A stretch of DNA of 64,000 nucleotides. Origin: Gemmatimonadaceae bacterium. Lineage in GTDB: Bacteria; Gemmatimonadota; Gemmatimonadetes; Gemmatimonadales; Gemmatimonadaceae. The number at the start of each line of letters is the position of its first letter. Position 1 is the first letter of the stretch. Below the pieces are notes generated by a model. The model searched no databases and was not told the DNA's origin. It saw nothing but the letters and a program-made list of their open reading frames with translations. This document shows positions 1,452-64,000 of the stretch, one piece after another. Made by a program: the position numbers and the translations under genes. The stretch is from NCBI GenBank assembly GCA_045804285.1, contig JBJMNL010000240.1, positions 5,821 through 69,820 on the forward strand. Reading direction: 5' to 3'.

Positions 1452-1588
1452 GGGGGGAAGGTATCGGGGGCGGGGGGGAGCGGGAAGCGGGGCGAGGGGG
1501 CGAAGGGGAGACGGCGGGCAGGGGGAACGGCGCCGGGACGCCCCTCGGCCGGTCGCCCCTACTGCTTGGACGGAGGCGTGCCGCCGTC

Positions 1589-1753
1589 GTGAGTGATGAG
1601 TTCTGAGTTGTGAGTCGTGAGTGGCGCGCCCGGCCGCCGGCGTCGCGCGGGGCGGGAGCCTCTGCTCCGGGACGCCATGATCCGGCGGGGTCGCGGTGCG
1701 CGCCCGGCGCGCTACTACCCGTCACTCACAACTCATCACTCATCACTCAGAAC
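1589..1753. repeat. Intergenic inverted repeat with heptamer-periodic arms (NNTGAGT x5 / ACTCANN x4) around a ~93-nt centre
   Basis: Left arm 1589-1624 reads GTGAGT GATGAGT TCTGAGT TGTGAGT CGTGAGT GG. The reverse complement of right arm 1718-1753 reads GT TCTGAGT GATGAGT GATGAGT TGTGAGT GACGGG. It lies between the batD/E stop and the mutL start. Confidence 0.8.
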
Positions 1754-1851
1754 GCCATCGCGAGCTGGCTCGTGGCGGAGAGGCGGCCGTCCCGCGCCAG
1801 CCCGAGACGCACCGCTCGCCACCGCCGCCCGCGCACTCACCGCTCCCATCG

Positions 1852-22361: not shown

Positions 22362-22405
22362 CTAGTGATTAGCGCTCAGTGGAACCACTGATGGCTAATC
22401 ACTAG
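22362..22405 (-). repeat. AT-richer 21-bp-stem hairpin in the spacer between the two tRNA-Ser genes
   Basis: CTAGTGATTAGCGCTCAGTGG aa CCACTGATGGCTAATCACTAG with one 2x2 internal mismatch. The arms parse as three heptamers NNAGYGN. Confidence 0.75.
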
Positions 22406-32386: not shown

Positions 32387-32457
32387 GGGGAATTCGGGGG
32401 AGCGGAAACGGGAGAGGCGGAATGAAGAGCGAAGGGCGGGAGGAGAGGAGGCTTGAA

Positions 32458-32556
32458 GGGCGGAATGAGGCATGAGGGATGAGGCCGGGACGCTCTTACT
32501 GGCCAGCGAGGCCTCCCGTGGCCTCCCGGCCTCATTCCCCATGCCTCATTCCGCCC
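32458..32556. repeat. GGAAYGA-family heptamer-arm palindromic element, copy 1
   Basis: Left arm 32458-32490 reads GGGC GGAATGA GGCATGA GGGATGA GGCCGGG A. The reverse complement of right arm 32524-32556 reads GGGC GGAATGA GGCATGG GGAATGA GGCCGGG A. The loop is 33 nt. Confidence 0.85.
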
Positions 32557-32596
32557 CTCAGGCTCTCATCACTCCGCGTTCTCGTTCGTCGTGCCG

Positions 32597-33422: not shown

Positions 33423-33515
33423 GCTCCCTCCCCGCTCCGCGCTCCACGCTCGCTCTGCCGGCCACCGAAGCCGGAGAGCGAGCGTGGAGCGTAAAGCGTG
33501 GAGCGTGGAGGGAGC
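33423..33515. repeat. Heptamer-arm palindromic element (GCGTGGA type)
   Basis: Right arm reads GAGCGA GCGTGGA GCGTAAA GCGTGGA GCGTGGA GGGAGC. Left arm is the imperfect complement CTCCCTC CCCGCTC CGCGCTC CACGCTC GCTC. The loop is CCACCGAAG. Confidence 0.75.
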
Positions 33516-45443: not shown

Positions 45444-45445
45444 GC

Positions 45446-45712
45446 TTACGACTCCCCGAACTTGTCGGCGATCAGGCGCGACAGCGTCTCGAGCGCCTGC
45501 TCGGCGTCCGGCCCGCTGGCGCGCAGCCGCACCGTCGATCCGTACTCGGCCGCGAGCATCATCACGCCCATGATGCTCTTCCCGTTCACCTCCAGGTCGT
45601 CGCGCGTGATGGTGATGTCGCTCTCGAACTTGGAGGCCGCCTTGACGATCTCGGCGGCGGGACGCGCGTGCAGGCCGTTCCGGTTGACGATTTGGACGCT
45701 TCGCTCAGCCAT
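45446..45712 (-). CDS. ptsH: Phosphocarrier protein HPr
   Basis: His15 context reads NRNGLHARPAA and Ser46 context reads NGKSIMGVMML. Confidence 0.95.
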   Translation of the reverse strand: MAERSVQIVNRNGLHARPAAEIVKAASKFESDITITRDDLEVNGKSIMGVMMLAAEYGSTVRLRASGPDAEQALETLSRLIADKFGES

Positions 45713-46502: not shown

Positions 46503-46510
46503 CTGCCGGC

Positions 46511-47200: not shown

Positions 47201-47245
47201 CGGCGGGCTACGCCGCGGCGAGCGTGGAGGGGGAGCGCGCGGCCG

Positions 47246-49176: not shown

Positions 49177-49231
49177 GGGGCCCCACCGTCGTGCGGCCGC
49201 CCCGCCGCCGCTACGGGCGCGATGGATCGCC

Positions 49232-49651
49232 TCACGCGTTGGCGATCTCCCCCGCGCCGGGCGCGCGCACGCCGAGCCCACCGGCCGCGCCGTCGCCCGC
49301 CACGAGATCGGCCACGTCGAGCTCCGCCGCGCGCGCCGCGGCGACGCCGAGCCGGCCGGCGCCGGTGCCCTTCCGCGAGTGCTTGACGGCGGCCGCCTGC
49401 CGCTGAAGCCGCGCGACCGCCGTGGCGAGCGCGGCGCCGAAGACGCGCGCGCTCCCCTCGGCGATCATCGGGCGCTTGCGCGGGGCGCGGAGAACGATCT
49501 CCACGCGACGTACCGGCCCGTCCGCCTCGAAGCGGACGATCGCGTCGACCGCGCGGTGGACGCGCCCCGCGACCCTGTGGACCGCGCGCCGCGCGCGCTC
49601 GCGCATCGGCTCGGAGACGCGCGCGTGATGTGCCTGAAAGACGATGTGCAC
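49232..49651 (-). CDS. hpf: Ribosome hibernation promoting factor (S30AE/RaiA family)
   Basis: GTG at 49651 gives VHIVFQAHHARVSEPMRERARRAVHRVAGRV .. VRFEADGPVRRVEIVL. Confidence 0.7.
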   Translation of the reverse strand: MHIVFQAHHARVSEPMRERARRAVHRVAGRVHRAVDAIVRFEADGPVRRVEIVLRAPRKRPMIAEGSARVFGAALATAVARLQRQAAAVKHSRKGTGAGRLGVAAARAAELDVADLVAGDGAAGGLGVRAPGAGEIANA

Positions 49652-49656
49652 CGGCG

Positions 49657-50787
49657 CTACCCTCCCCTGATCTTCGCCTCGCCGAGCTGCGCGGCGAGGT
49701 GTGCTTCGGTCTCGGCGGCCGCCCGCTCCCACGTGAACGTCTCGGCGAAGCGCCGCCCGCGCGCGCCGAGCGCCGCCACCAGCTCGGGCGACGCCGCCAG
49801 GCGCCCCATCGCCCCCGCCATCGCGGAGACGTCGCCGTGCGCGACGAGGAAGCCCGTCTCCCCGTCGCGCACCGACTCCCGCAGCCCGGGCGAGTTCGAT
49901 GCGACGACCGGCGTGCCGCACGCGGCCGCCTCCATGTTAGTGATCCCCCACCCTTCCTTCGGCGAGGCGAAGACGAGAGCCCAGGCGCGCCGGAGGAGCG
50001 CCACCTTGTCCCCCTCGTCTATACGCCCAAGAAACCGCACGCGCCCGCCGAGGTCAAGCGAGGCGGCGAGGCGCTCCAGCTCGGGGCGGTAGTCGCCGCT
50101 GCCGGCGATCTCGAGCGTCGCCGCGGGGTGCCCCCCGCCGCGCACCAGCTCGGCGAAGGCACGGATGACGATGTCGACGCCCTTGTACCGCTTGAGGCGC
50201 CCGAGGTACGCGAAGACCGGGGTCGGTGCGCGCGTGGCCGGAGCCGGCGTGTAGTGGACCGTGTCGATCCCGCAGTAGATGACCCGCACCCGGTCCCGGG
50301 GGATCCCGCGGCGCGCCAGGTCGTCGGCCGTGCTCTCGCTGATCGCCTGGAAGGGGACGTCCCGGTAGAGCCGCCCGAGCGGTCGCTCGGCGAGCCAGAC
50401 GGCCGCCGCGAGCGGCGCCGGCAGCTCCTCGAACGCCGTACCGCCGAAGAGGTGCGGCACGACCGCGACGGAGCGCTCCGGCCCCCAGTAGGGCGTATAC
50501 AGCGGCGCCTTGTTGATGTCCTCGACCACCAGGTCGAAGCCCCGCTCCTGCAGCTCGCGCCGGTAGTAGCGGCGCGCGAGCAGCGCGAACGTCTGCCGCG
50601 TGCCGACCCGGTGCACGGCCATGCCGTCGAGCTCGACGCGCCGCGTGCCGCCCGGCCACCCGCCGCAGAGGAGCGTCACCTCGTGCCCGCCGCAGGCGAG
50701 ACGGCCGAAGATCTCATGCAGATGAATCTCGGCCCCGCCCGCCTGCGGGTTTTCGCGGTCCTGCCAGTTGACGACGAGGATCTTCAC
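49657..50787 (-). CDS. GT4-family (GT-B fold) glycosyltransferase
   Basis: MKILVVNWQDRENPQAGGAEIHLHEI .. C-terminal E-x7-E region FASPKEGWGITNMEAAACGTPVVASNSPGLRESV. Confidence 0.85.
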   Translation of the reverse strand: MKILVVNWQDRENPQAGGAEIHLHEIFGRLACGGHEVTLLCGGWPGGTRRVELDGMAVHRVGTRQTFALLARRYYRRELQERGFDLVVEDINKAPLYTPYWGPERSVAVVPHLFGGTAFEELPAPLAAAVWLAERPLGRLYRDVPFQAISESTADDLARRGIPRDRVRVIYCGIDTVHYTPAPATRAPTPVFAYLGRLKRYKGVDIVIRAFAELVRGGGHPAATLEIAGSGDYRPELERLAASLDLGGRVRFLGRIDEGDKVALLRRAWALVFASPKEGWGITNMEAAACGTPVVASNSPGLRESVRDGETGFLVAHGDVSAMAGAMGRLAASPELVAALGARGRRFAETFTWERAAAETEAHLAAQLGEAKIRGG

Positions 50788-50800
50788 GAGGGGCCGGAAA

Positions 50801-50848
50801 GGCGGGATTCAGAGGGGCGGGACTCAGAGGGGCGGGACTCAGAGGGGC
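50801..50848. repeat. Tandem 15-mer GGCGGGACTCAGAGG x3
   Basis: ggcgggattcagagg ggcgggactcagagg ggcgggactcagagg, directly abutting the next palindromic element. Confidence 0.9.
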
Positions 50849-50966
50849 GGAACGAGGACCGGGATGGACGGAATGCGGAATGAGGAACGAGGGCCGGGAC
50901 GTCATCACTGGCCCGCCAGGCCAACCGGTAGGGTCCCGGCCTCATTCCTCATGCCTCGTTCCGCCC
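50849..50966. repeat. GGAAYGA-family heptamer-arm palindromic element, copy 2 (contains the nusB stop codon)
   Basis: Left arm reads GGAACGA GGACCGG GATGGAC GGAATGC GGAATGA GGAACGA GGGCCGG GAC. The reverse complement of the right arm reads GGGC GGAACGA GGCATGA GGAATGA GGCCGGG AC. The nusB stop TGA is at 50942-50944. Confidence 0.85.
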
Positions 50967-51412
50967 TTGCCGCCCCTACCGCCCTTCATCTCCCCCAGCC
51001 TCCCCATCCGTCTCGCCAGCGCGTCCAGAACCCCGTTCACGAAGCGGGCGCTCTGCGCGCTGCCGTAGCGCTCGGCGAGGCGCACGGCCTCCTGGATGAC
51101 GACGCGCGGCGGCGTCTCGCCGGCGGAGAGCTCGGCGGCGGCGAGGCGGAGCACGGAGCGCTCGATGGCGCCGAGGCGCCCCAGGCGCCAGTTCGTGGTG
51201 ACGTCGGCGAGCTGCGCGTCGAGGGCGCGCCCCCCGGCGGCGACGGCGCGCACGAGGATGCCGGCGAGGCGGCGTTCGTCGGCCGGGACGGCGAGGTCGT
51301 CCCAGACCTGGCTCGCGACGCGGTCGAGGTTCGTCTCGCCGCGCAGGTCCCAGGCGTAGAGCGCCTGCAGCGCCCGCGCGCGGGCCCGCGTCTCAACCCT
51401 CGCGCGCGCCAT
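50942..51412 (-). CDS. nusB: Transcription antitermination factor NusB
   Basis: Start MARARVETRARARALQALYAW at 51412. Further motifs read AIERSVLRLAAAEL and RFVNGVLDAL. The last ~25 aa are low-complexity sequence read from the intergenic repeat. Confidence 0.85.
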   Translation of the reverse strand: MARARVETRARARALQALYAWDLRGETNLDRVASQVWDDLAVPADERRLAGILVRAVAAGGRALDAQLADVTTNWRLGRLGAIERSVLRLAAAELSAGETPPRVVIQEAVRLAERYGSAQSARFVNGVLDALARRMGRLGEMKGGRGGKGGTRHEE

Positions 51413-51920
51413 CGGCCAGGTCGTCGTCCGAGTCCTCGTCGTCGGCGCCGGCGGCGCTGTGCAGCCGGTCGAAGAGGTCGGCCATCTCCATGGCGGCCAG
51501 CGCGGCGTCCCACCCCTTGTTGCCATGCTCCCCACCGGCGCGCGCGTCGGCCTGCGCCATGTCGTCGGTGGTGAGGACGCCGAAGCCGATGGGCACCTCG
51601 AATTCGGCGCTCGCCGCCGCGAGCCCGCGCGAGGCCTCGCCGGCCACGTAGTCGAAGTGCGGCGTCTCCCCCCGCACCACCGCGCCGAGCGCGACGAGCG
51701 CGTGGTAGCGCTCAGTGGCGAGGAGGATGCGCGCGGCCGCCGGCAGCTCCCACGCGCCGGGCACCCACACCACGTCCACGTTCTCGTACGCCGCCCCGTG
51801 GCGCATCAGCGCGTCGAGCGCGCCGTCCACGAGACGCTGGGTGATCTGTTCGTTGAATCGGCTGGCGACCACCGCGAAGCGGCGGCCGCGCCCGGAGGGC
51901 GCGCCGGTGAATTCGGGCAT
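51393..51920 (-). CDS. ribH: 6,7-dimethyl-8-ribityllumazine synthase
   Basis: RFAVVASRFNEQITQRLVDGA .. VWVPGAWELP .. GAVVRGETPHFDYV, followed by an acidic C-terminal tail. Confidence 0.95.
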   Translation of the reverse strand: MPEFTGAPSGRGRRFAVVASRFNEQITQRLVDGALDALMRHGAAYENVDVVWVPGAWELPAAARILLATERYHALVALGAVVRGETPHFDYVAGEASRGLAAASAEFEVPIGFGVLTTDDMAQADARAGGEHGNKGWDAALAAMEMADLFDRLHSAAGADDEDSDDDLADGAREG

Positions 51921-51979
51921 AGAATCGGGAATTAAGCGGGGCCACCCCCGTACCGGGAGTGGGGGCCGCGGAGGTCACG

Positions 51980-52093
51980 GGCGGTCGGCAGTCGTCAGTC
52001 GTCAGTTTTCAGTGCGCAGTCGCCTCCGGGCACCGCTCACTGAAAACTGACGACTGGGCAGTGCGAACCGAAGACCGAGCACCGCCGACCGCC
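51980..52093. repeat. Heptamer-arm palindromic element (CAGTNNN type) between ribBA and ribH
   Basis: 51989-52023 reads CAGTCGT CAGTCGT CAGTTTT CAGTGCG CAGTCGC. The 19 nt CAGTCGTCAGTTTTCAGTG pair perfectly with 52038-52056. An outer pair GGCGGTCGGC (51980) / GCCGACCGCC (52084) flanks them. Confidence 0.8.
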
Positions 52094-52121
52094 TCCGGGC
52101 CACGCCGCTGACGCCGGAGCG

Positions 52122-53336
52122 TCAGGACGCGAGCAGATGCCCCAGCTTCGCCCGCTTGGTCTGCAGGTACCCCGAGTTCTCGTCGGTCGTCGGGGGCTCG
52201 ATCGGGACGCGCTCGCGCACGGTGAGGCCGTAGCCCTCGAGCCCGATGAGCTTGCGCGGGTTGTTGGTGATCGGACGGATCGCCTTGAGGCCGAGGTCGA
52301 GCAGGATCTGCGCGCCGATGCCGTAGTTGCGCAGGTCGGGGGCGAAGCCGAGCTCCTCGTTCGCCTCGACCGTGTCCTTCCCCGAGTCCTGGAGCTCGTA
52401 GGCGCGGAGCTTGTTGAGCAGGCCGATGCCGCGCCCCTCCTGGTCGAGGTAGACGATCACCCCGCGTCCCGCCTCGGCGATCATGCGCATAGCCGTGTGG
52501 AGCTGCCAGCCGCAGTCGCAGCGCATCGAGTGGAAGACGTCGCCCGTGAGGCACTTCGAGTGCATGCGGACGAGCACTCCGTCGCCGCCGGCGTCGGGCT
52601 GCTGCACGTCGCCGTAGACGAGCGCCACGTGCTCGTGCGTGTCCACGTCGTTGCGGTAGCCGATGATCCGGAACTCGCCGAAGTCGGTCGGCAGCCGCGC
52701 CTCCGCCACGCGGTGCACCAGGCGCTCGTTCTTCAGCCGGTAGGCGACGAGCTGCGCCACCGTGATGAAGGTGATCCCGTGCTCCTGCGTGAAGCGGTCG
52801 AGCTGCGGACGCCGCGCCGTGGTGCCGTCGTCGTTCAGGATCTCGCAGATCACGCCCGCCGGGTACAGGCCGGCGAGACGCGCGAGGTCCACCGCCGCCT
52901 CGGTGTGGCCCACGCGCTGGAGCACGCCCCCTTCGCGCGCGCGGAGCGGGTGGATGTGGCCCGGCCGCCGGAGGTCGCCGCGCACCGTCGCCGGGTCCAC
53001 CGCGACGTGGATCGTCATCGCCCGGTCGGCCGCGCTGATCCCCGTCGTCACGCCGAAGCGCGGCGCGGCGTCGATGCTCACCGTGAACGCGGTGCGCATG
53101 GCCTCCGTGTTCTCGTCCCCCTGCGGCTGGAGCCCCAGCTGGTCGACGCGCTCGCCGGTGAGCGCGAGACAGATCATCCCCTTCGCCCTGAGCATGAAGT
53201 TGATCATCTCGGGCGTGACCAGCTGCGCCGCGCAGATGAGGTCTCCCTCGTTCTCGCGGTCCTCGTCGTCCGCCACGACGACGAACTTTCCGGCGCGGAG
53301 GTCCGCGATGGCCTGCTCTACAGTGCCGAAGGGCAT
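52122..53336 (-). CDS. ribBA: Bifunctional 3,4-dihydroxy-2-butanone-4-phosphate synthase / GTP cyclohydrolase II
   Basis: DDEDRENEGDLI (RibB) and MHSKCLTGDVFHSMRCDCG (RibA zinc motif). Confidence 0.95.
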   Translation of the reverse strand: MPFGTVEQAIADLRAGKFVVVADDEDRENEGDLICAAQLVTPEMINFMLRAKGMICLALTGERVDQLGLQPQGDENTEAMRTAFTVSIDAAPRFGVTTGISAADRAMTIHVAVDPATVRGDLRRPGHIHPLRAREGGVLQRVGHTEAAVDLARLAGLYPAGVICEILNDDGTTARRPQLDRFTQEHGITFITVAQLVAYRLKNERLVHRVAEARLPTDFGEFRIIGYRNDVDTHEHVALVYGDVQQPDAGGDGVLVRMHSKCLTGDVFHSMRCDCGWQLHTAMRMIAEAGRGVIVYLDQEGRGIGLLNKLRAYELQDSGKDTVEANEELGFAPDLRNYGIGAQILLDLGLKAIRPITNNPRKLIGLEGYGLTVRERVPIEPPTTDENSGYLQTKRAKLGHLLAS

Positions 53337-53390
53337 CTCACTCTCACCTGATCTGAAGCTGTTTCGTTGTCGCGGGCCGCAGGCCCGCTC

Positions 53391-54008
53391 TCACGCCGAG
53401 GCCGCCGCGCGATGGGCCGCGAGATAGGGGTCGACCAGCCGCCGCACGTACTTCCCCACCACGTCGGCCTCGACGTGGACGCGGTCGCCCGCGGCGAGGT
53501 CGCCGAGCGTCGTGTGACGCAGCGTGTACTCGATGAGCGAGAGCTGCAGCGTGTCCGGCGCCGGCAGCGCGTTCACGGTCAGGCTCACGCCGTCCACCGT
53601 CACCGACCCGTGCGGCACCATCAGCTCCGCCAGCGACTCGGGGAGCGCGACGTCGACCAGCAGCGCGTCGTCGCGCCGAGCCACCTCGGTGACCCGCCCC
53701 ACGCCGTCGACGTGACCCTGCACGAGGTGGCCGCCGAGACGGTCGCCGGCGCGCAGGGCGCGTTCGAGGTTGACGCGCATGCCGGCGCGCCAGTCGCCCA
53801 TCGTCGTGCGGTCGAGCGTCGTGACCACCGCCGCCGCGGTGAACCATCCCGCCCCGTGCTCGCGCACGGTGAGGCAGGCGCCGTTGACCGCCACGCTCTC
53901 GCCCCCGGCCAGGTCGGCGTAGCGGCAGCGCACGCGGAACGCGCGCCCCGCCAGCGTCTCGTCCACCCGCTCGATGGTGCCGACGTCGTCGATCAGTCCG
54001 GTGAACAC
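53391..54008 (-). CDS. ribE: Riboflavin synthase
   Basis: MFTGLIDDVGTIERV and two lumazine-binding repeats (SVAVNGACLTV and SVTVDGVSLTV). Confidence 0.95.
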   Translation of the reverse strand: MFTGLIDDVGTIERVDETLAGRAFRVRCRYADLAGGESVAVNGACLTVREHGAGWFTAAAVVTTLDRTTMGDWRAGMRVNLERALRAGDRLGGHLVQGHVDGVGRVTEVARRDDALLVDVALPESLAELMVPHGSVTVDGVSLTVNALPAPDTLQLSLIEYTLRHTTLGDLAAGDRVHVEADVVGKYVRRLVDPYLAAHRAAASA

Positions 54009-54024
54009 GGGGCTGGGTGCGATC

Positions 54025-55155
54025 TCACTGGATCGGGTACGATACGGAGTAGACGGTCATCACGTCGGCGCCCAGCGCGCGTCGCTCCAGCGCCTGGAGG
54101 CGCAGAGCGGCGCCCGCGGACGCCGGCGGCACGGCCGAGAACGCGTTGAGGGCTCCCGCCCCCAGCACGATCGGCGCCTGTAAGATAATCAGTCGGTCCA
54201 CCAGGCAGCGGCCGAGCAGCGAGCCGGCGAGCTCGGCCCCCCCTTCCACGAGCAGCGAGCGCACGCCCTCGGCGCGGAGCGCGCGAAGCGCGGCGCCGGC
54301 GTCCGCGGCGACGACGACGTCCACGCCGGCGTCCACCAGGCGGCGCGCGCGCTCGGCGTCGGGCCGCTCGGTGACCACGGTGGTCGGGATCGCGCGCGCG
54401 CTGCGCGCCAGTCGGCTCTCGAGCGGGAGGCGCGCCGTGCGGTCGAAGACGACGCGGCGCGGCGCCAGTCGCGGCGGCTCCCAGTCGCGCACCGTCAGCG
54501 CCGGATCGTCGGCGAGCACCGTGCCGACGCCGACGGCGATCGCGTCGGCCCCGGCGCGCAGCCGGTGCACCTCGCGGCGCGCCTCGCGCCCCGTGAGCCA
54601 GAGCGGCGCGCGGTCGGCGCGGGCGATCGCCCCGTCCACCGACAGGGCGAGCTTGAGCGTCACCCACGGCCGGTAGGAGGTGAACGCGGTGAGGAAGGGG
54701 GCGTTGAGCTCGCGCGCGGCGTCCTCCTCGACGCCGAACGTCACGTCGATCCCCGCCGACTGGAGCTTCGCGCCCCCCCCCTGGGCGAGCGGGTTCGGGT
54801 CGCGCAGCGCCGCGACGACGCGCCGCACGCCGGCCGCGATCAGCGCGTCCGCGCAGGGCGGCGTCTTGCCGTGGTGCGCGCAGGGCTCGAGCGACACGTA
54901 GGCCGTGGCTCCGCGCGCCCGCTCTCCGGCCGCGGCGAGCGCCACGGCCTCCGCGTGCGGCTCGCCGTAGCCGGCGTGATGGCCCTCCCCCACCACCTCC
55001 CCGTCGCGCACGAGCACGGCGCCGACGAGCGGGTTCGGGGCGACCTGCCCCCAGCCACGCTCGGCGAGGGCGAGGGCGCGGCGCATGTAGTTGGAGTCGG
55101 CGTCGGCGGTCACGGGCGAGTCGGTTCCGGGTGCTGGTCGGATGGAATATGACAT
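54025..55155 (-). CDS. ribD: Bifunctional diaminohydroxyphosphoribosylaminopyrimidine deaminase / 5-amino-6-(5-phosphoribosylamino)uracil reductase
   Basis: Start MSYSIRPAPG at 55155. Deaminase motifs read HAEAVAL and SLEPCAHHGKTPPC. The C-terminal reductase domain contains LLVEGGAELAGS. Confidence 0.9.
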   Translation of the reverse strand: MSYSIRPAPGTDSPVTADADSNYMRRALALAERGWGQVAPNPLVGAVLVRDGEVVGEGHHAGYGEPHAEAVALAAAGERARGATAYVSLEPCAHHGKTPPCADALIAAGVRRVVAALRDPNPLAQGGGAKLQSAGIDVTFGVEEDAARELNAPFLTAFTSYRPWVTLKLALSVDGAIARADRAPLWLTGREARREVHRLRAGADAIAVGVGTVLADDPALTVRDWEPPRLAPRRVVFDRTARLPLESRLARSARAIPTTVVTERPDAERARRLVDAGVDVVVAADAGAALRALRAEGVRSLLVEGGAELAGSLLGRCLVDRLIILQAPIVLGAGALNAFSAVPPASAGAALRLQALERRALGADVMTVYSVSYPIQ

Positions 55156-55191
55156 GCCGCGCGTCCCGGTCACACGATGGACGGCGCATGC

Positions 55192-55230
55192 GAAACCGCC
55201 CGGCGCTCGCAACGAGCGCCGGGCGGTTTC
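55192..55230 (-). terminator. Hairpin terminator after the beta-barrel gene, upstream of ribD
   Basis: GAAACCGCCCGGCGCTCG caa CGAGCGCCGGGCGGTTTC (18-bp stem flanked by A/T residues). Confidence 0.65.
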
Positions 55231-55250
55231 GGGATGCGTTCAGCCGGGAC

Positions 55251-56279
55251 TCAGAAGCCGAACTTCAGGCCGAGCGAGCCGTAGGTGCGCGCGTCGTCCG
55301 CCTTCTTGTCGCCGAACGTGTTCAGGGTCTGCACGTCGCCGCCCGAGACGCGGCCGACCTCGGCCACGCCGCGGAAGACCAGCAAGTTGAACGAGAGATC
55401 CGCGAAGTAGTTGGTGCGGGTGAGCGACTGCTCGAGCGCACCCGCCTGGGTCCGGGCGCGCGTGTAGACCGGAACGCCGCCGCCGGCCACCGGCACGGCG
55501 ACGTCCGCGTGCGCGCTCCCCTTCGAGTCGTACTTGTCCTGGCCGGCGCCCACGGCGAGGCCGAACATGAGCAGATTCTTGCTCGCCACGACGCGCCAGG
55601 CCTTCGTGTTCACGGAGAGCCCCGAGACGCCGACCGTGTCGCGGTGCGCCGCGTCGGCCCCGTTGACCGCGGCCAGCACGTCGACCGTCGGGAGGTCGCG
55701 GCGCAGGTACGTCACCGACACGCCCGGCACGACCATCGACTCCTCGAGGATGCCGACGCGCGCGCCCCAACCGAACTTGAACGAGCCGTCGGGGAGACGG
55801 ACGCGGAAGTCGCCGTTGCCGTACTCGGGGAGGTAGCTCGCGCTGACGAGGGCGTCCACGCCGCCGACGTGCGTCAGGCCGAGCGGGATCCCCTTGAAGA
55901 GCCCGAGCGCGCCCTCCAGGGCCGGCGCGCCGAGGAACTGGTCCTTGGCGCCGAGATCGCTCGCCTGGGCGCCGGTCCGGCTGACCGAGAACTTCGACGC
56001 GTCGGGGATTGTCCCCTGGACGGCGTTCACGCGGAGGCCGACGGCGAAGTGGCCGAGGCCGCCCAGCGTGCTCCCCTGTCCGAGCGCGGCGTTGCCGCCG
56101 GCGACCGCGAGGCCGAGCTGCGGGGCCATGAAGTTGAAGACGTCCTGCGACTTCTGGCAGGCGTCCCGCGCCTCGACCTGCTGGCTCGAGCAGCTGAGCG
56201 ACGTCGAGCTCTGCGCGTGGAGCGGGGCGGTGATGCCGGCAAGGGCGAGCCCCGCCGTGAACAGACGAGCCTTCATCAT
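55251..56279 (-). CDS. Outer-membrane beta-barrel protein (porin-like), family not recognised
   Basis: Signal peptide ..ITAPLHAQ, an alternating amphipathic pattern throughout, and a C-terminal ..YGSLGLKFGF (aromatic terminal residue typical of OMPs). Confidence 0.65.
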   Translation of the reverse strand: MMKARLFTAGLALAGITAPLHAQSSTSLSCSSQQVEARDACQKSQDVFNFMAPQLGLAVAGGNAALGQGSTLGGLGHFAVGLRVNAVQGTIPDASKFSVSRTGAQASDLGAKDQFLGAPALEGALGLFKGIPLGLTHVGGVDALVSASYLPEYGNGDFRVRLPDGSFKFGWGARVGILEESMVVPGVSVTYLRRDLPTVDVLAAVNGADAAHRDTVGVSGLSVNTKAWRVVASKNLLMFGLAVGAGQDKYDSKGSAHADVAVPVAGGGVPVYTRARTQAGALEQSLTRTNYFADLSFNLLVFRGVAEVGRVSGGDVQTLNTFGDKKADDARTYGSLGLKFGF

Positions 56280-57340
56280 GAGCGATGCTCCTGGGTGAGT
56301 TTGACGACGCCTGAGCCGCGGACGACGCGACCGAGAGTCCAGGCGTTCACGCCCGCGCGGCGGGCGCTCACCATGACAGCATCGGCCGACGCGGCGTCGG
56401 TGATGACGACCATGCCGACCCCCATGTTGAAGGCGCGGAAGAGCTCGTCGCGCGCCACACCGCCCGCCTCCCCGAGGGCGCGGAACAGGTTGGGGACCGT
56501 CCAGCTCGCCGTGTCGACCACGGCGTCGAGCGTATCGGGCAGGGCGCGGTTGAGGTTGCCCGGAAGCCCCCCGCCGGTGACGTGCGCCATCGCGTGGACG
56601 ACGGGGAGCACGGGGCGGAGCGCCGCGAGGTACGAGCGGTGCACCGCGAGGAGGACGTCGGCCGTCGATCTCCCCTCCGGGTCGCCCGGGAAGGGGTCCG
56701 ACGGGCTCAGCCGCATCCGTTCTGAGACGATGCGGCGGGCGAGGGAGTAACCGTTGGTGTGCAGCCCGGAGCTCTCGAGCCCCACGAGCACGTCCCCCTC
56801 GCGCACCCGCTCGGCGCCCAGCACCTGGTCCTCCTCCACCGCTCCGACCACGAAGCCCGCCAGGTCGTAGTCCGGCGGGGTGTAGAGGCCGGGCATCTCG
56901 GCGGTCTCGCCGCCGATCAGCGCCGCCCCGTTCTCGCGGCAGCCGGCCGCGACGCCGGCGACGACTCCCTCGACCACCGCCGGCTCGAGCTTGCCGAAGG
57001 CGACGTAGTCGAGGAAGAAGAGTGGCGTCGCGCCCTGGACGAGGATGTCGTTGACGCAGTGGTTCACGAGGTCGTGGCCCACCGTGTCGTGGCGGTCGGC
57101 CTCGATGGCGACCTTGATCTTGGTCCCCACGCCGTCGGCGCTGGCCACGAGGAGCGGGCTGCGCATGCCCGGCGGGACGCGGAACATCCCCCCGAAGCCG
57201 CCGAAGGCGCCGCGCGCCCCCGCCGTGAACGTGGACTCGACGAGCCGCTTGATGCGGTGCTTCGCGTCGTCCGCCGCGTCGATGTCGACGCCGGCGGCGC
57301 GGTAGTCGAGCGGCCCGGGCGCTCCGGTCGAGTCGCTCAC
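56276..57340 (-). CDS. purM: Phosphoribosylformylglycinamidine cyclo-ligase (AIR synthetase)
   Basis: GTG at 57340 (GTGA overlap with the pfkB stop). Motifs read YRAAGVDIDA, VASADGVGTK, DYVAFGKL and GLHTNGYSL. Confidence 0.95.
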   Translation of the reverse strand: MSDSTGAPGPLDYRAAGVDIDAADDAKHRIKRLVESTFTAGARGAFGGFGGMFRVPPGMRSPLLVASADGVGTKIKVAIEADRHDTVGHDLVNHCVNDILVQGATPLFFLDYVAFGKLEPAVVEGVVAGVAAGCRENGAALIGGETAEMPGLYTPPDYDLAGFVVGAVEEDQVLGAERVREGDVLVGLESSGLHTNGYSLARRIVSERMRLSPSDPFPGDPEGRSTADVLLAVHRSYLAALRPVLPVVHAMAHVTGGGLPGNLNRALPDTLDAVVDTASWTVPNLFRALGEAGGVARDELFRAFNMGVGMVVITDAASADAVMVSARRAGVNAWTLGRVVRGSGVVKLTQEHRS

Positions 57341-58305
57341 GCCCGGACGGCCGCCGAAGGCGAGGAGCCGGCGGGCTCCGGGACGCCCGCGTCCGCCGCC
57401 TGCGCCTCGAATGCGACGAGGCGGTGGAAGTCGCCCACCCGCCGCTCGATGTCGCGCGGCGTGATCTCCATCAGCCGCTGGATCGAGAACTTCTCGACGG
57501 CGAAGGAGCCCATCGCCGAGCCGTAGACCACCGCCCGGCGCAGGTTCGCGTCGCTCAGGTCCCCCGTGCGCGCGAGGTACCCCATGAAGCCGCCGGCGAA
57601 CGAGTCGCCGGCGCCGGTCGGGTCGAAGACGTCCTCGAGCGGGAAGGCGGGCGCGAAGAAGATCGACGCGCCGTGGAACATGAAGGCGCCGTGCTCCCCC
57701 TTCTTGATGATCACGTAGCGCGGGCCGCGCTCCATGATCCAGCGCGCCGCCTTCACGAGGTTCGCCTGCTCGGTGAGCTGTCGCGCCTCGCCGTCGTTGA
57801 GCGTGATGAGGTCGACGCGCTTCAGGAGCTCGAGCAGGTCGGGGCGCCGGCTCTCGATCCAGAAGTTCATGGTGTCGCAGGCGACGAGCCGCGGCGCCTC
57901 GACCTGGCTCAGCACCTCGAGCTGGAGCCGCGGGTCGATGTTGGCGAGGAAGACGAACGGCGCGCGGCGGAACTGCGCCGGGATCTTGGGGCGGAAGTGC
58001 GAGAAGACGCCCAGACGGGTCTCGAGCGTCTCCGCCGAGTTGAGGTCGTGGCGGTAGCGCCCGCGCCACCGGAACGACTCCCCTTCGGCCCGCTCGACGC
58101 CGGCGAGGTCCACACCGCGCGCGGCGAGCGGCGCGAGCTGCTCCACCGGGTAGTCGGCGCCGACGACGCCCACGAGCTGCACCGGCGTGAGATGGCTGGC
58201 CGAGGCGGAGAAGAACGTCCCCGAGCCTCCGAGGACGTCGTCGGCCTTGCCGAACGGCGTTTCGACGGAGTCGAGGGCGACGGAACCGACGACGAGAACG
58301 GACAT
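57337..58305 (-). CDS. PfkB/ribokinase-family sugar kinase
   Basis: MSVLVVGSVALDSVETPFG .. GGSGTFFSASA .. C-terminal DPTGAGDSFAGGFMGYL. Confidence 0.85.
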   Translation of the reverse strand: MSVLVVGSVALDSVETPFGKADDVLGGSGTFFSASASHLTPVQLVGVVGADYPVEQLAPLAARGVDLAGVERAEGESFRWRGRYRHDLNSAETLETRLGVFSHFRPKIPAQFRRAPFVFLANIDPRLQLEVLSQVEAPRLVACDTMNFWIESRRPDLLELLKRVDLITLNDGEARQLTEQANLVKAARWIMERGPRYVIIKKGEHGAFMFHGASIFFAPAFPLEDVFDPTGAGDSFAGGFMGYLARTGDLSDANLRRAVVYGSAMGSFAVEKFSIQRLMEITPRDIERRVGDFHRLVAFEAQAADAGVPEPAGSSPSAAVRA

Positions 58306-58322
58306 GGAAGAGAGGGGAGCGA

Positions 58323-58363
58323 GATGGAGGGCGCCCGATGGAGGGCGCCCGATGCAGGGCGCG
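58323..58363. repeat. Tandem 14-mer GATGGAGGGCGCCC x2.8
   Basis: gatggagggcgccc gatggagggcgccc gatgcagggcgcg, upstream of the pfkB start. Confidence 0.85.
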
Positions 58364-58392
58364 TGCGTTCGGTGCGGGCCGATTCCGGGCCG

Positions 58393-58428
58393 GTGCTACC
58401 TTCCCGGTGGGGGGGCCCCCCCGCGCGC
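58393..58428 (-). repeat. Conserved G-run/C-run element just downstream of the argS stop
   Basis: GTGCTACCTTCCCGGT GGGGGGG CCCCCCC GCGCGC. The first 15 nt are identical to 10377-10391. Confidence 0.7.
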
Positions 58429-58436
58429 GACGCGGC

Positions 58437-60203
58437 TCACATGCGCTCGGGCGCCGTGATGCCGAGGATCGACAGCCCGTTCCGCAGCACCACCTGCGTC
58501 GCGCGCGCGAGCACGAGGCGGGCGCGGGTGATGGGCTCGGGCTCGTCGAGGACGTGGTGCTTGTGGTACCAGCTGCTCGCCTTCCGCGCGGTCTCGAGCA
58601 GGTAGCTCGCCACGCGGTGCGGCTCGAGCGCCTCGGCGGCGCCGGCGACGAGCGGCGGGAAGTCGAGCAGCGCCTTCGTGAGCTCGACCTCCTCCGGCTC
58701 CGAGAGCACGGCCAGGTCGACCCCCTGCCCCGTGATCGACTCCGGCGCGACGCCGCCGTTGCGGAAGATGCCGGCCATCCGCGCGTGCTGCATCTGGATG
58801 TAATAGACCGGGTTCTCTTCCGACTGCTGCGACGCGAGGTCGACGTCGAAGACGAGCTGCGAGTCGCCCTTCCGCATCAGGAAGAAGTAGCGCACGGCGT
58901 CGCGTCCGACGGCGTCGATCAGGTCGCGCACGGTGACGTAGCTGCCGGCGCGCTTGGAGATCTTCACCTCCTCGCCGCCGCGCATGACGGTCACCATCTG
59001 GTGCAGCACGTAGTCCGGGTACCCCTGCGGGATGCCGGCGCTGAGCGCCTGGAGGCCGGCGCGAACGCGGGTCACGGTGCTGTGGTGGTCGGCGCCCTGC
59101 ACGTTGATGGCGCGCCGGAAGCCGCGCTTCCACTTGGTGACGTGATAGGCGACGTCGGGGACGAAGTACGTGTAGGAGCCGTCGCGCTTGCGCATCACGC
59201 GGTCCTTGTCGTCGCCGAGCTCGGTCGTGCGCAGCCAGAGCGCGCCGTCCTGCTCGTAGGTCATCCCCACGTCCACGAGCGACTCGACGGTCTCCTCGAC
59301 CTTGCCGTCGCTGTACAGCGACGACTCGAGGAAGTAGCTGTCGAACTTGACGCCGAACGCCTGGAGGTCGAGGTCCTGCTCGCGCCGCAGGGCAGCCACG
59401 GCGTAGGCGCGCAGCTCGCCGAAGAGCGTCCGATCGAGATCGGCGACGGCCCGCGCGCGAAGCACGATCTGCTCCTTCTCGTCCTCAGTGGCGGCCATCG
59501 CGTCGCCGGCCGCGGCGAGCGCGCGGGCGCCCGCGAGCAGCACGTCGCGGACCGCGTCGCCCCCGCCGCGCTCGGCGAGGAAGCGCTGCGCGATCTCGCG
59601 GATGTAGTCGCCGTGGTAGGCGAAGCGCGGCATGGCGACCGGCGCGCCGAGCTCCTGCGCCGCGCGCAGCCAGACGCTCGCGGCGAGGTTCTCGATCTGC
59701 ACCCCGGCGTCGTTGTAGTAGAACTCGCGCGAGACGTCCGCCCCGTTCCACGAGAGCAGCGTCGCGATGGCGTCGCCGAGCGCGGCCTGGCGGCCGTGCC
59801 CCACGTGCAGCGGCCCCGTGGGATTCGCGGAGACGAACTCGACGACCGTCCGCATCCCGCCGGCGCGATCCGAGCGGCCGTACTCCTCGCCGGCGGCGAT
59901 GATCTGCGGCAGCCCGCCGGCCACCGCGGCCGGGTCGAGGCGGAAGTTGATGAAGCCGGGCCCCGCGATCTCGGCGCTGCTCACCCCCGCCGCGCGCAGG
60001 TCGGCGCCGTCGATGAGCGCCTGGGCCACCTCGCGCGGCTTGCGGCCGAGCGGCCGGGCGAGCGTCATGGCGAGGTTCGTCGCCCAGTCGCCGAACGCGG
60101 GGTCGCGCGGGCGCTCGAGCACGACGTCCAAGGGCTCCGGCGCGCCGAGGCGGCGCGCGGACTCGGCGAGGACGCCGCGGATCGCGTCGGCGGTCGCGCT
60201 CAT
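58437..60203 (-). CDS. argS: Arginyl-tRNA synthetase
   Basis: Start MSATADAIRGVL at 60203 (ATGA overlap with the upstream stop). It contains SANPTGPLHVGHGR (HIGH) and ends ..ITAPERM. Confidence 0.95.
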   Translation of the reverse strand: MSATADAIRGVLAESARRLGAPEPLDVVLERPRDPAFGDWATNLAMTLARPLGRKPREVAQALIDGADLRAAGVSSAEIAGPGFINFRLDPAAVAGGLPQIIAAGEEYGRSDRAGGMRTVVEFVSANPTGPLHVGHGRQAALGDAIATLLSWNGADVSREFYYNDAGVQIENLAASVWLRAAQELGAPVAMPRFAYHGDYIREIAQRFLAERGGGDAVRDVLLAGARALAAAGDAMAATEDEKEQIVLRARAVADLDRTLFGELRAYAVAALRREQDLDLQAFGVKFDSYFLESSLYSDGKVEETVESLVDVGMTYEQDGALWLRTTELGDDKDRVMRKRDGSYTYFVPDVAYHVTKWKRGFRRAINVQGADHHSTVTRVRAGLQALSAGIPQGYPDYVLHQMVTVMRGGEEVKISKRAGSYVTVRDLIDAVGRDAVRYFFLMRKGDSQLVFDVDLASQQSEENPVYYIQMQHARMAGIFRNGGVAPESITGQGVDLAVLSEPEEVELTKALLDFPPLVAGAAEALEPHRVASYLLETARKASSWYHKHHVLDEPEPITRARLVLARATQVVLRNGLSILGITAPERM

Positions 60204-60532
60204 TCGCCGCCCGACGCCGGCTTCGAGGCGGGGGGGGACGACGCCGCCGCGGCGGGCGCGGCGGCGGGCTTGCTCTCGCCCCCCTTCGACTCGCCGCCCG
60301 AAGTGGCGCCCTCGGCCGGCTTGGCGGCGGCCTTCTGGTCCTTCTTGCCGTCCTTGCCGTAGTCCGTGATGTAGAAGCCCGACCCCTTGAAGTGGAGCCC
60401 GGCGCCGCCGGAGATCCGGCGCTCGGCCGGCGCGCCGCACTCGGGGCACGGGAGCGAGCTCTGGGACTCGCTGATCTTGCAGAATCGATCGAAGTCGTGC
60501 CCCGTCGGGCAACGATACTCGTAAGTCGGCAT
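60200..60532 (-). CDS. FmdB-family zinc-ribbon protein with a low-complexity C-terminal tail
   Basis: MPTYEYRCPTGHDFD .. LPCPECGAP .. FKGSGFYITDY, followed by a K/A/G/S/P-rich tail. Confidence 0.8.
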   Translation of the reverse strand: MPTYEYRCPTGHDFDRFCKISESQSSLPCPECGAPAERRISGGAGLHFKGSGFYITDYGKDGKKDQKAAAKPAEGATSGGESKGGESKPAAAPAAAASSPPASKPASGGE

Positions 60533-60676
60533 TGGCCTATGACTTAGATGCATGAGACTGAGCCCATCAAAGCTAGTCGGCCCGGCAGCGTCGTACAAGG
60601 CGACGCGGCCGGGCCGGGATGCTGGCTGAGCGCCTGCGCGCGGCCCGAATGACCTCGGCCGCGGCGGCGTGGGACG

Positions 60677-61294
60677 TCAGGCGGCGAGATCCGCCGCGCG
60701 GGCGCTCGCGTCGCGCGCGACCTTGAGCGCGCGAGCCCACCAGACGAGCTGGTCGAACAGCGCCGAGCGGCTCGCCGCGAGGTACGGATAGTCCGCGAGC
60801 GTCTTGCCGTGCATCAGCAGGCCGAGGAACGGCTCCATCCCGATGTGTACGGCCTGCTTGACGGGCGCCATCTGCAGCTCGATGGCGGTCATCCGGAGCT
60901 GCTCCACCGCGCGCGCGCCGCCCACCCCGCCGTAGCCGACGAAGCCGATCGGCTTGCCGCTCCATTCGTTGAACGCCGAATCGAACGCGTTCTTGAGCAC
61001 GGCCGTCGGGCCGTGGTTGTACTCGGCCGCGGTCGCGATGAAGCCGTCGAACTCCCCGATCCTGTGGCGCCAGCGCTCGGCCACAGGGTTCGAGTACGTG
61101 CCGCCGGTCGCGAGGGGCGAGGCCGGCTCCTCGTAGAATGGGAGCGGCCAATCGCGGAGGTCGAGGACCTCGAGCATGAAATCAGATCGTGCCGCCGCGC
61201 CCTCCTGGACCCAGCGGGCCGGGACGTCGGCGAAGCGGTTCGGGCGCGTGCTGCCGATGATGAGCGCGAGCTTGATGGTGTCGGGTGTCGTCAT
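60677..61294 (-). CDS. NAD(P)H-dependent FMN reductase family protein
   Basis: IKLALIIGSTRPNRF .. FIATAAEYNHGPTAVLKNAFD .. GFVGYGGVGG. Confidence 0.85.
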   Translation of the reverse strand: MTTPDTIKLALIIGSTRPNRFADVPARWVQEGAAARSDFMLEVLDLRDWPLPFYEEPASPLATGGTYSNPVAERWRHRIGEFDGFIATAAEYNHGPTAVLKNAFDSAFNEWSGKPIGFVGYGGVGGARAVEQLRMTAIELQMAPVKQAVHIGMEPFLGLLMHGKTLADYPYLAASRSALFDQLVWWARALKVARDASARAADLAA

Positions 61295-61328
61295 CTGCCC
61301 CTGGTGACTCCGTAACGATTGGTGTGTA

Positions 61329-61345
61329 GGTTACTATCGGTAACC
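61329..61345. promoter_or_regulatory. Palindrome GGTTAC-N5-GTAACC in the divergent FMN-reductase/hxlR region (candidate operator)
   Basis: Read directly. The surrounding ~60 nt are the lowest-GC stretch of this intergenic region. Confidence 0.35.
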
Positions 61346-61419
61346 AACAACAACCTAGGGGCGGCGGTCGGCGCGGTGAAGAACGCACGCGAACGTGCCT
61401 CGGTAACACGGGAGGAACG

Positions 61420-61860
61420 GTGGCAGCACAGACGACGCGCACCCGGACGGGCGCGGGCGGTAGTCGCGTACGACCGCCAGAGCTCGAGCTCACCGAGGGG
61501 AATTGCCGCGCGCGCGAGATGCTCGACCGGGTGGGCGACAAGTGGTCCGTGTACGCGATCCACGTGCTCGGCGCCGCGGGCACGCTGCGCTTCGGGGAGC
61601 TGCGGCGGTCCATCGACGGCATCAGCCAACGGATGCTCACCGTGACGCTCCGCGGGCTGGAGCGGGACGGGATCGTCCGCCGGACCATGTACCCCGAGGT
61701 GCCGCCGCGCGTCGAGTACACCCTCACCCCGCTCGGGGCGACGCTGCGGGACATCGTGCGGTCGCTGGTCGAGTGGTCGGAGGCGCACCTCGCCGAGATC
61801 GATGCCGCGCGCGCGCGATACGACCAGCAGGAGCGCGGCTGGGCGGCTGCAGCGGACTGA
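61420..61860 (+). CDS. HxlR-family transcriptional regulator
   Basis: GTG at 61420 with GGAGG at 61411. Motifs read CRAREMLDRVGDKWSVYAIHVL, LRFGELRRSIDGISQRMLTVTLRGLERDGIV and VEYTLTPLG. Confidence 0.9.
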   Translation: MAAQTTRTRTGAGGSRVRPPELELTEGNCRAREMLDRVGDKWSVYAIHVLGAAGTLRFGELRRSIDGISQRMLTVTLRGLERDGIVRRTMYPEVPPRVEYTLTPLGATLRDIVRSLVEWSEAHLAEIDAARARYDQQERGWAAAAD

Positions 61861-61888
61861 GCGGGGTGCTCGTCGGCGTGCGGGGTGC

Positions 61889-63514
<1,626 letters not shown>

Positions 63515-63548
63515 GTGGCAAAAGCTAGCGGATACCGGGGCAAAGGGA

Positions 63549-63651
63549 GGGGCGGAATGAGGAACGAGGAATGAGGGCCGGGAGGCTTCGGGGGGCCATG
63601 CCGGCCACCGCTAGCCTCCCGACCCTCATTCCTCGTTCCTCATTCCGCCCC
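63549..63651. repeat. GGAAYGA-family heptamer-arm palindromic element, copy 3 (best preserved)
   Basis: Left arm 63549-63585 reads GGGGC GGAATGA GGAACGA GGAATGA GGGCCGG GAGG. It pairs 36/37 with 63615-63651, with a 29-nt loop. Confidence 0.9.
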
Positions 63652-63684
63652 TGCCGTTCAGTCCCTGCCGTTCAGTCCCTGCAG
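63649..63684. repeat. Tandem 14-mer CCCTGCCGTTCAGT x2.5
   Basis: ccctgccgttcagt ccctgccgttcagt ccctgcag, between element copy 3 and the fbp stop. Confidence 0.85.
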
Positions 63685-63693
63685 CGGACCCGC

Positions 63694-64000
63694 CTACGCC
63701 GCTCCCGCTCCCGCCATCGCCTGCGACCCCAGCATCTGATGCGCCGTCTCCACGTCCAGCTTGCTGCCGATGAAGAGCGGCGTGCGCTGGTGAAGCTCGG
63801 TGGGCTGGATGTCGAGGATGCGCTGGCGACCGTCGCAGGCGGCGCCGCCGGCCTGCTCGCAGATGAAGGCGAGGGGGCTCGCCTCGTAGAGCAGGCGCAG
63901 CTTGCCGTTCGGGCTCTTGCGGTTCGCCGGGTACGCGAAGATGCCACCGCCGAGCAGGTTGCGGTGGAAGTCGGCGACGAGGGAGCCGACGTAGCGCACG
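63694..64000 (-). CDS. fbp: Fructose-1,6-bisphosphatase class 1 (C-terminal part; the 5' end lies beyond the window)
   Basis: [24 protein letters not shown] .. [21 protein letters not shown]. Confidence 0.85.

Follow-up and report, generated by a model that had tools for sequence, protein, structure and literature searches.

Hairpins with heptanucleotide-repeat arms between the genes of a Gemmatimonadaceae bacterium

Heptanucleotides are the commonest long simple repeats in most genomes, a result credited to Mrazek, Guo and Shah (2007) together with the proposal that heptamers arise by polymerase slippage over a 7-nt contact (as cited in PMC4679880 and PMC4692102). The closest described system is that of Xanthomonas, where Rehm et al. 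2015 (PLoS One) counted 186 heptamer arrays of the GGGAATC type in one genome and 183 in another, with 70 and 75 cases of close convergent array pairs in the X. campestris and X. axonopodis genomes (PMC4692102). Here we describe six intergenic hairpins whose arms are built of tandem heptamers, in a 64,000-nucleotide stretch of a Gemmatimonadaceae genome (GenBank assembly GCA_045804285.1, contig JBJMNL010000240.1, positions 5,821 to 69,820 of the forward strand) that we refer to as the window. The initial annotation of this DNA had known of no described REP/MITE class with 7-nt periodic arms, but the architecture is not undescribed in view of the convergent pairs already reported for Xanthomonas (PMC4692102). 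For the Gemmatimonadota, our literature search found no paper on such heptamer elements.

The Xanthomonas repeats are 89-93% intergenic, lie on average 28 nt from the upstream open reading frame (ORF) and 160 nt from the next, occur mostly between co-directional and rarely between divergent ORFs, and differ in length and sequence between species (PMC4692102). Most are transcribed, no function or regulatory role was found for them, and GGGAATC-type oligonucleotides form G-quadruplexes in vitro (Rehm et al., PMC4692102). Three tandemly repeated heptanucleotides are mentioned for Calothrix PCC7601 (as cited in PMC4692102). In Beggiatoaceae, MacGregor 2015 described TAACTGA repeats that stop all frames, on which ORFs end (PMC4679880); they comprise 169 direct sets and one inverted set and lie upstream of start codons. 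Cold-shock-domain proteins bind one heptamer each (PMC4679880). Another relevant group is formed by the repetitive extragenic palindromes (REPs) and their composites, the bacterial interspersed mosaic elements (BIMEs) and REP doublets (REPINs), all associated with RAYT, an IS200/IS605-like Y1 transposase. REPs measure 20-40 bp, carry a tag (GTAG or CGTC) and lack tandem periodicity within; elements of this group are hypothesized to terminate transcription or stabilize mRNA and thought to be selfish in origin (PMC3733652).

The initial annotation had listed seven loci in the window as hairpins with heptamer arms. Six of these, designated elements A to F (Table 1), are near-perfect hairpins with 7-nt-periodic arms by both autocorrelation and comparison with shuffled sequence. 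For every hairpin that had arms of 21 nt or more and pairing of 80% or more, we recorded the best autocorrelation lag of the arm out of 11 lags, and the best lag was 7 in 8 of the 16 hairpin rows that qualified (six loci, including 22362). Because a strict perfect-repeat finder missed degenerate arrays, tracts were instead sought by windowed autocorrelation (at least 16/21 matches at a given lag), with 20 dinucleotide shuffles as the control. This comparison, run on the window, gave 11 period-7 tracts versus a shuffle mean of 1.95, and an inverted partner within 250 nt for 8 of the 11 versus 0.1 in shuffles. Periods 5, 8, 10 and 11 yielded 1-3 tracts each, none with an inverted partner. Periods divisible by three abound in coding sequence alone. 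A chance origin of the heptamer hairpins is excluded by these shuffles. The three partnerless period-7 tracts and one marginally partnered tract (11392-11454, 26550, 44178) are G+C-rich and unconvincing as arrays, so that each convincing heptamer array of the window is a hairpin arm. With essentially all convincing arrays of this lineage being hairpin arms, the 7-nt periodicity is tied to palindrome formation.

The strength of the periodicity varies among the elements. Lag-7 autocorrelation is 0.84-0.88 for element D and 0.77 for element E, spans 0.77-0.88 for D, E and C together, and is 0.58-0.60 for elements A and B, which have three units. Of the four loci that the initial annotation had added to the GGAATGA copies, those at 1589-1753, 33423-33515 and 51980-52093 stand as elements D, E and F. 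The fourth, at 22362-22405, is a real hairpin, but its lag-7 autocorrelation of 0.57 over 14 comparisons is within what we estimate, rather than compute, as the chance best of 11 lags. It was not counted as periodic and is probably outside the heptamer class.

All six elements are predicted to be very stable as RNA. Five of them fold at -74 to -105 kcal/mol, with z-scores of -6 to -14 and 0/200 shuffles equally stable (element A, -104.7 kcal/mol, z -14.1; element B, -91.2 kcal/mol, z -11.2; z-scores of -6.0, -9.75 and -7.0 for C, E and F, respectively), and element D, folded in a separate run owing to its length, reaches -102 kcal/mol. An assembly artifact is ruled out by independent assemblies and by occurrence in many projects, and CRISPR arrays are ruled out since the elements are single hairpins without spacers. 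In a search of the window against Rfam 15, only a cobalamin riboswitch and two tRNAs reached gathering score and no element matched; below threshold, the elements score on both strands against microRNA-precursor models, as generic long hairpins do. The riboswitch is at 38521-38685 (minus strand, 74.5 bits), and a gene for a TonB-dependent B12-type receptor is at 33556-36048.

Table 1. Hairpins of the window, with adjoining tandem repeats and neighboring genes.
Feature	Position	Strand	Structure	Neighbors
Element A, GGAATGA family	63542..63658	-	long hairpin, arms 63548-63587 and 63613-63652	fbp stop 63694-63696; methylmalonyl-CoA mutase start 63514
Element B, GGAATGA family	32451..32563	-		between recO stop (32597) and selB
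Element C, GGAATGA family	50843..50968	-	unequal arms, additional units in plus-strand left arm	nusB and GT4 glycosyltransferase; nusB ORF enters arm and stops at TGA 50942-50944
Element D	1585..1754	-	NNTGAGT x5 arms, 108-nt structured loop	stop at 1852 of unnamed gene; mutL start 1451
Element E, GCGTGGA/ACGCTCC family	33423..33515	-		TonB-dependent receptor stop 33556; recO start 33361
Element F	51977..52093	-	CAGTNNN x5 arms within outer GGCGGTCGG clamp	ribBA stop 52122; ribH start 51920
Short hairpin	22362..22405	-	21-nt arms; heptamer periodicity unestablished	between tRNA-Ser(GGA) and tRNA-Ser(CGA)
Tandem 15-mer (GGGCGGGAYTCAGAG x3)	50806..50850		resembles element terminus; read from sequence	adjoins element C
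Tandem 9-mer (AAGGGCGGN x3, sense strand)	50955..50986		derived from element C terminus	codes KGG RGG KGG in NusB tail
Tandem 14-mer (CTGCCGTTCAGTCC x2.5)	63651..63689			between element A and fbp stop

The best represented type is the GGAATGA family, hereafter family 1. The initial annotation had described an element at 63549-63651 with close copies at 32458-32556 and 50849-50966, and these three loci (A, B and C) are confirmed as relatives, having the same terminus, (A)AGGGCGGAAYGAGG, as well as the same inner stem, GGNCGGGASG. The arms of element A are 40 nt long with one mismatch according to the hairpin finder, whereas a repeat search gave longer arms of 56 nt, 88% complementary. We read the arm as GGCGGAA TGAGGAA CGAGGAA TGAGGGC CGGGAGG, a register different from that of the initial parse. 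Adjoining element B, at 32416-32445, is a degenerate solo half-copy of a family-1 arm (GGCGGAATGAAGAGCGAAGGGCGGGAGGAG).

Family 1 extends well beyond the window. Metagenome contigs were scanned for GGCGGAAYGAGGNAYGAGG, which gave at least 120 loci, and hairpin copies were taken from high-G+C contigs; the counts that follow hold for the matches listed. At least 30 hairpin copies were obtained in this way (three in the 64 kb of the window and at least 27 on metagenome contigs), all full copies that share an outer end, (A)AGGGCGGAAYGAGG (terminus AAGGGCGGAAYGAGG), together with an inner stem, GGGNCGGGASGC, and have a loop that is either short or about 20 nt longer. The number of AAYGAGG units is 2-7 per arm, and in at least 8 of the 30 copies one arm has more units than the other (7 versus 5 units in L090, for example, and 4 versus 2 in L145). 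One carrier contig, L130, belongs to the Gemmatimonadaceae, its desaturase being 86-90% identical to proteins of that family. This placement came from a protein search, and a tblastn comparison of the metagenome contigs with the Gemmatimonad loci gave no overlap. Family-1 contigs also bear GGGTGTC and CGGCTCT heptamer hairpins. Element E likewise has a second family member (L153:3014-3100) with the same terminus, GCTCCCTCCACGCTCC. Hence at least two of the types, GGAATGA and GCGTGGA, are multi-copy dispersed families with conserved termini, and the initial annotation's phrase "unrelated sequences" has to be qualified accordingly. A search of a plasmid collection with element A returned no match.

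Comparison of the copies shows how these elements are put together. An arm is an array of 7-nt units, homogeneous in its middle part and degenerate at its ends, which the opposite arm mirrors up to a small loop; what might be taken for a clamp and an inner stem in family 1 are the diverged edge units of a single array. Copies differ from each other by whole 7-nt units, often unequally between arms, and their base changes are matched across arms. In 13 family-1 copies with three units per arm, again among the matches listed, 93.8% of cells are paired. Two-sided changes affect eight pairs and 24 cells, versus 12.5 cells in shuffles (0/500 as high), and at most 3 two-sided cells are left when the partners are slid by 1-3 columns. 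Compensatory change is seen, for example, within units (T-A to C-G), in column 28 (A-U/C-G/U-A) and in column 34 (C-G/G-C). The suggestion in the initial annotation of a common generating process is plausible in that unit number differs both between copies and between the arms of one copy.

The window has a G+C content of 74%, with nearly all its genes on the minus strand. Codon periodicity is missing from at most 14.5% of the window, and it is in this fraction that all six strong loci are found, 28-97 nt downstream of minus-strand stop codons, which agrees with the initial description of them as intergenic and 3′ of stops. Similar positions were found on the metagenome contigs, where genes around family-1 copies were called by third-position G+C. 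Among the matches listed, 3′ ends account for 31 of the 38 gene ends within 100 nt of a copy, the gap between stop codon and element has a median of about 11 nt, and two copies lie between divergent genes; at least nine copies lie between convergent genes in spacers that hold little else. Moreover, at least six ORFs (five on contigs, and nusB) end within a family-1 element, at least four of them on its first TGA. From these recurrent ORF ends it would seem that a gene can tolerate an insertion into its last codons when the units bear stops. The initial annotation had proposed that heptamers carrying TGA place stops in all three frames, which is partly true on the sense strand: C, D and F close three frames, A and B close two and E none.

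Few conventional signals were detected near these genes. A consensus scan of the 44-64 kb segment (44001-64000) found one terminator-like site versus 3.6 in shuffles, none at any element there, and no sigma-70-like promoters, and no obvious Shine-Dalgarno sequence precedes the mutase, ribH or glycosyltransferase starts (three checked by eye). Elsewhere in the window, a perfect 21-bp stem with a 4-nt loop at 14106-14151 (AACGGCGAGAGGGCCGGCCCC agtc ...), 30 nt past the stop of a minus-strand gene at 14182, is terminator-like, without a T-run. Between element F and the ribH start there is a second, ordinary stem-loop of 12 bp at 51944-51973 (GGGGCCACCCCC...GGGGGCC), and a C-rich tract on the sense strand with a period of about 8 nt (GGGGGCGA x7.6 on the plus strand, 1466-1525) lies between element D and the mutL start. 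A loopless perfect 27-bp palindrome, not heptamer-periodic, occupies 22191-22244 between the end of a plus-strand gene at 22143 and tRNA-Ser(GGA). Two intergenic tandem repeats without an inverted partner, at 43585-43653 (GCGCGATCSACSRG-like x4.5) and 58312-58367 (GGAGGGCGCCCGAT x3.5), have a period of 14 nt, or twice seven.

Orthologous gene junctions indicate that at least some of the elements arrived recently. RibBA of the window is at most 83% identical to RibBA of Gemmatimonadaceae metagenome-assembled genomes, with which gene order is conserved, and we located orthologous gene pairs in relatives by tblastn and measured their spacers. The median spacer between fbp and the mutase gene is -4 nt in relatives (n=22) versus 179 nt in the window, that between ribBA and ribH is +2 nt (n=67) versus 201 nt, and that between nusB and the glycosyltransferase gene is -1 nt (n=52) versus 154 nt. 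Each of the three window spacers is filled by an element, and the junctions of the relatives are typical stop-start overlaps, so the elements must have come in, or have grown in place, recently. Even the three closest genomes differ in which junctions are occupied. Different heptamer hairpins are borne by L001 and L002 at the nusB-glycosyltransferase junction, where the occupants of the window, L001 and L002 align weakly (52% column identity) and the outer units of the window (GGATGGACGGAA) resemble those of L002 (GGATGGCGGAC) only loosely. At ribBA-ribH, neither L001 nor L002 has a heptamer hairpin, and L001 has one upstream of ribBA. The fbp-mutase spacer of L002 (L002:1008-1295) contains a palindromic repeat that is not built of heptamers (GTCATTCCGAGCGGAG ... 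CTCGATTCCTCGACTCCGCTCGGAATGAC), part of which is duplicated.

At nusB, the element has altered a protein. NusB has 156 residues in the window versus 139 in most relatives, and the 17 extra C-terminal residues (50942-50995, minus strand), ending ...EMKGGRGGKGGTRHEE, are coded by three 9-nt copies of the element terminus and by two and a half units. The reading frame then ends on a TGA of element C, as the initial annotation had noticed, and the public NusB annotation (156 aa) includes the tail. A search with the exact NusB sequence led to 11 short contigs from a single sample series. Element F has the same sequence in all six independently assembled read sets that include it, and element C falls at the ends of contigs. 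Contigs L201-L206 (Logan, SRR174591xx) end exactly within element C, at the nusB stop, or within element F, and hence the elements break assemblies.

The construction of one hairpin type with different heptamers recurs in relatives (L001, L002, L008, L012, L128, L130 and L208), so the initial claim of one architecture with several heptamers holds both within and outside the window. In relatives fetched with RibBA, the units are GGGATGA, GGGAATC and GGTTACN in L001, GGCGGAY in L002, GGCTACC in L008 and AGAAAGC in L012, and 964 kb of such loci contain 25 period-7 tracts versus 3-8 for periods 5, 8, 10 and 11, a period-7 density about 6 times below that of the window. A 6.9-kb contig with 66% G+C carries AAGAGTN, GGAATGA and CAGTGGG hairpins together with an unpaired GAGGACT array (L128:2600-5700). 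At L001:9922-10002, a hairpin of four GGGAATC units, identical to the Xanthomonas unit, ends two bases ahead of the ribBA ATG, where it could occlude translation initiation. Synteny is not conserved at the orthologues of the L130 desaturase locus. The spacers downstream of the desaturase are empty in L207 and L210, hold a GCGTAGC heptamer hairpin in L208 and a different repeat in L211. Direct-type heptamer arrays resembling long simple sequence repeats were met by the pattern scan in L108 and L170.

The explanation that we favor, and that we consider moderately probable, is that the elements are dispersed intergenic palindromes, similar to REPs or to miniature transposable elements with inverted repeats (MITEs), which change by 7-nt slippage and which, if transcribed, are likely to serve as 3′ hairpins without a U-tract. 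Arrays would lengthen and shorten in 7-nt steps through slipped-strand mispairing, as the literature proposes for heptamer repeats, and whole-unit slips would be tolerated because a repeat-armed hairpin stays paired after a slip of one unit. Template switching from arm to arm may hold the palindrome near-perfect, and the palindrome does reach the loop tip. Tandem duplications of 9, 14 and 15 nt adjoin elements A and C, as expected near hairpins that stall replication. Copies would spread by some copy mechanism and survive only at the 3′ ends of genes. When transcribed, they are predicted to fold into stems of 40-50 bp (about -70 to -110 kcal/mol), which most probably stop or protect transcript 3′ ends in both directions without needing a U-tract. 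Such hairpins would uncouple formerly overlapping cistrons, and units bearing TGA would end an ORF quickly after insertion into its last codons, as in nusB.

Several points weigh against this explanation. The step size of 7 nt is left unexplained by it. No unit-number polymorphism of element F was seen across the six read sets, so slippage is not fast on that scale. By eye, no target-site duplication flanks the 30 family-1 copies, no GTAG or CGTC tag is present except for the CGTC of element D, and no transposase turned up in the 64-kb window, although no search aimed at transposases was made; mobility is thus deduced only from the dispersed similar copies. The density of these copies on metagenome contigs is biased, since the scan pattern is itself periodic, which does not bias the context statistics. 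Types D and F were each seen once and could have arisen in place. A role in transcript termination or stabilization is one that we purely infer, and no U-tract or T-run follows the stems, the tails of which read CCCTTC or CCCTCCCTTTG. Finally, four of the six periodic elements have sense and antisense folds that are within 3 kcal/mol of each other (D favors antisense by 8 and F sense by 4), and equal stability on both strands means that nothing favors maintenance at the RNA level over maintenance at the DNA level.

A strong rival, to which we assign a real but clearly smaller share of probability, is that the elements are selfish or neutral repeats without host function, persisting at gene 3′ ends because insertion elsewhere is lethal. 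Most relatives lack them at the same junctions and manage there with stop-start overlaps, which fits this alternative, as do the variable occupancy among the closest genomes, the youth implied by near-perfect stems, the nusB C-terminus altered as collateral damage, and the lack of any regulatory role found for the Xanthomonas repeats (Rehm et al., PMC4692102). Against it, the hairpin is the sole candidate terminator between tightly spaced convergent genes in a region without canonical ones, and compensatory changes maintain pairing, though arm-to-arm copying could do likewise.

It is much harder to view the elements as ordinary intrinsic terminators that evolved in place, with convergence producing the likeness between loci. 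GC-rich and very stable hairpins that follow stop codons, often between convergent genes, are what one would look for, but the shared 15-nt termini and 12-nt inner stem of at least 30 copies are features that a terminator need not conserve. In addition, stems of 40-50 bp far exceed terminator size, no T-run follows, and some elements sit within operons, ribBA-ribH-nusB for example, whose genes are tightly coupled in relatives, points which together make this origin very unlikely. We give similarly little credit to the idea that the arrays are platforms for a protein reading single strands every 7 nt, such as a cold-shock-domain protein, with the palindrome being secondary; HutP-like NAG-N4 readers are further candidate 7-nt readers. 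The period is strictly 7 across unrelated sequences and GAG recurs every 7 nt in family 1, but the heptamer units have no common motif, and each convincing array of the window is paired with its complement and would be hidden from a single-strand reader. Least credible is the proposal, made for the Xanthomonas GGGAATC repeats, of G-quadruplex or i-motif formation: L001 has literal GGGAATC and GGGATGA arrays, and such oligonucleotides form quadruplexes in vitro (Rehm et al.), but the window units contain no more than GG (GGAATGA) or lack G-runs altogether (NNTGAGT, CAGTNNN), four G3 tracts are absent, and the complementary arm competes for the G-rich strand.

A more far-reaching version of the explanation that we favor, which we put forward as a long shot, is that heptamer-armed hairpins form a distinct, self-renewing intergenic class across Gemmatimonadota, Xanthomonas and cyanobacteria. 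A specific process, either hairpin-templated slippage or an unrecognized enzyme, would mirror 7-nt arrays at gene 3′ ends and replace units faster than sites are lost, and the hairpins would be the main U-tract-independent bidirectional transcript-end signals of these GC-rich genomes.

A given junction contains an element in some relatives and lacks one in others, which provides a natural experiment on termination, processing, stabilization, slippage and arm-to-arm correction. There is also a practical side, in that the elements break short-read assemblies and alter annotated gene ends, as with the 17-residue tail of NusB.

The dominance of heptamers among long simple repeats has been known since 2007 and inverted pairs are frequent in Xanthomonas, so the architecture itself is known and the novelty lies in the phylum, the sequences and the family structure. 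Added here are several unit sequences on one construction, copy variation by whole units, and the recent splitting of operon junctions that overlap in dozens of relatives. Like the elements, REPs, BIMEs and REPINs are GC-rich palindromes dispersed over the 3′ ends of genes, where the neighboring genes are convergent or co-directional (Di Nocera et al. 2013, PMC3733652); they differ in size and build, the window-type elements being 75-170 nt long and composed of 7-nt units. Nor do the ends match a REP tag, as family 1 ends in AAGGGCGG and only element D begins with CGTC. Unlike in a MITE, the entire element is palindromic, and by eye the flanks of the 30 copies show an extension of the palindrome, AAG...CTT. 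The stem of an intrinsic terminator is present and its U-tract is not.

Heptamer long simple repeats, including those of Calothrix and the TAACTGA repeats, share with the elements a 7-nt unit, head-to-tail intergenic arrays of at least three units whose number varies between copies, the possibility of several heptamers per genome, and slippage as the proposed origin; as with TAACTGA, units containing TGA stop all frames and ORFs end there. Those arrays are mostly direct, however, whereas the convincing arrays of the window are essentially all hairpin arms. The Xanthomonas pairs are closer still. In both, inverted heptamer arrays lie close enough to form a stem-loop, nearer the end of the upstream ORF than the next ORF, mostly between co-directional and rarely between divergent genes, with some overlapping stop codons. 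In both, unit number and sequence differ between related species at the same genes, and the very same unit, GGGAATC, occurs in L001. What cannot be carried over from Xanthomonas is the quadruplex reading, because the window units GGAATGA, NNTGAGT, CAGTNNN and GCGTGGA are without G3 runs, the GGGANTN feature being met only in L001. The elements of the window further differ from the Xanthomonas pairs in belonging to another phylum, in having several unrelated heptamers side by side, in possessing conserved termini and an inner stem so that they behave as dispersed families, and in splitting junctions that are stop-start overlaps in relatives.

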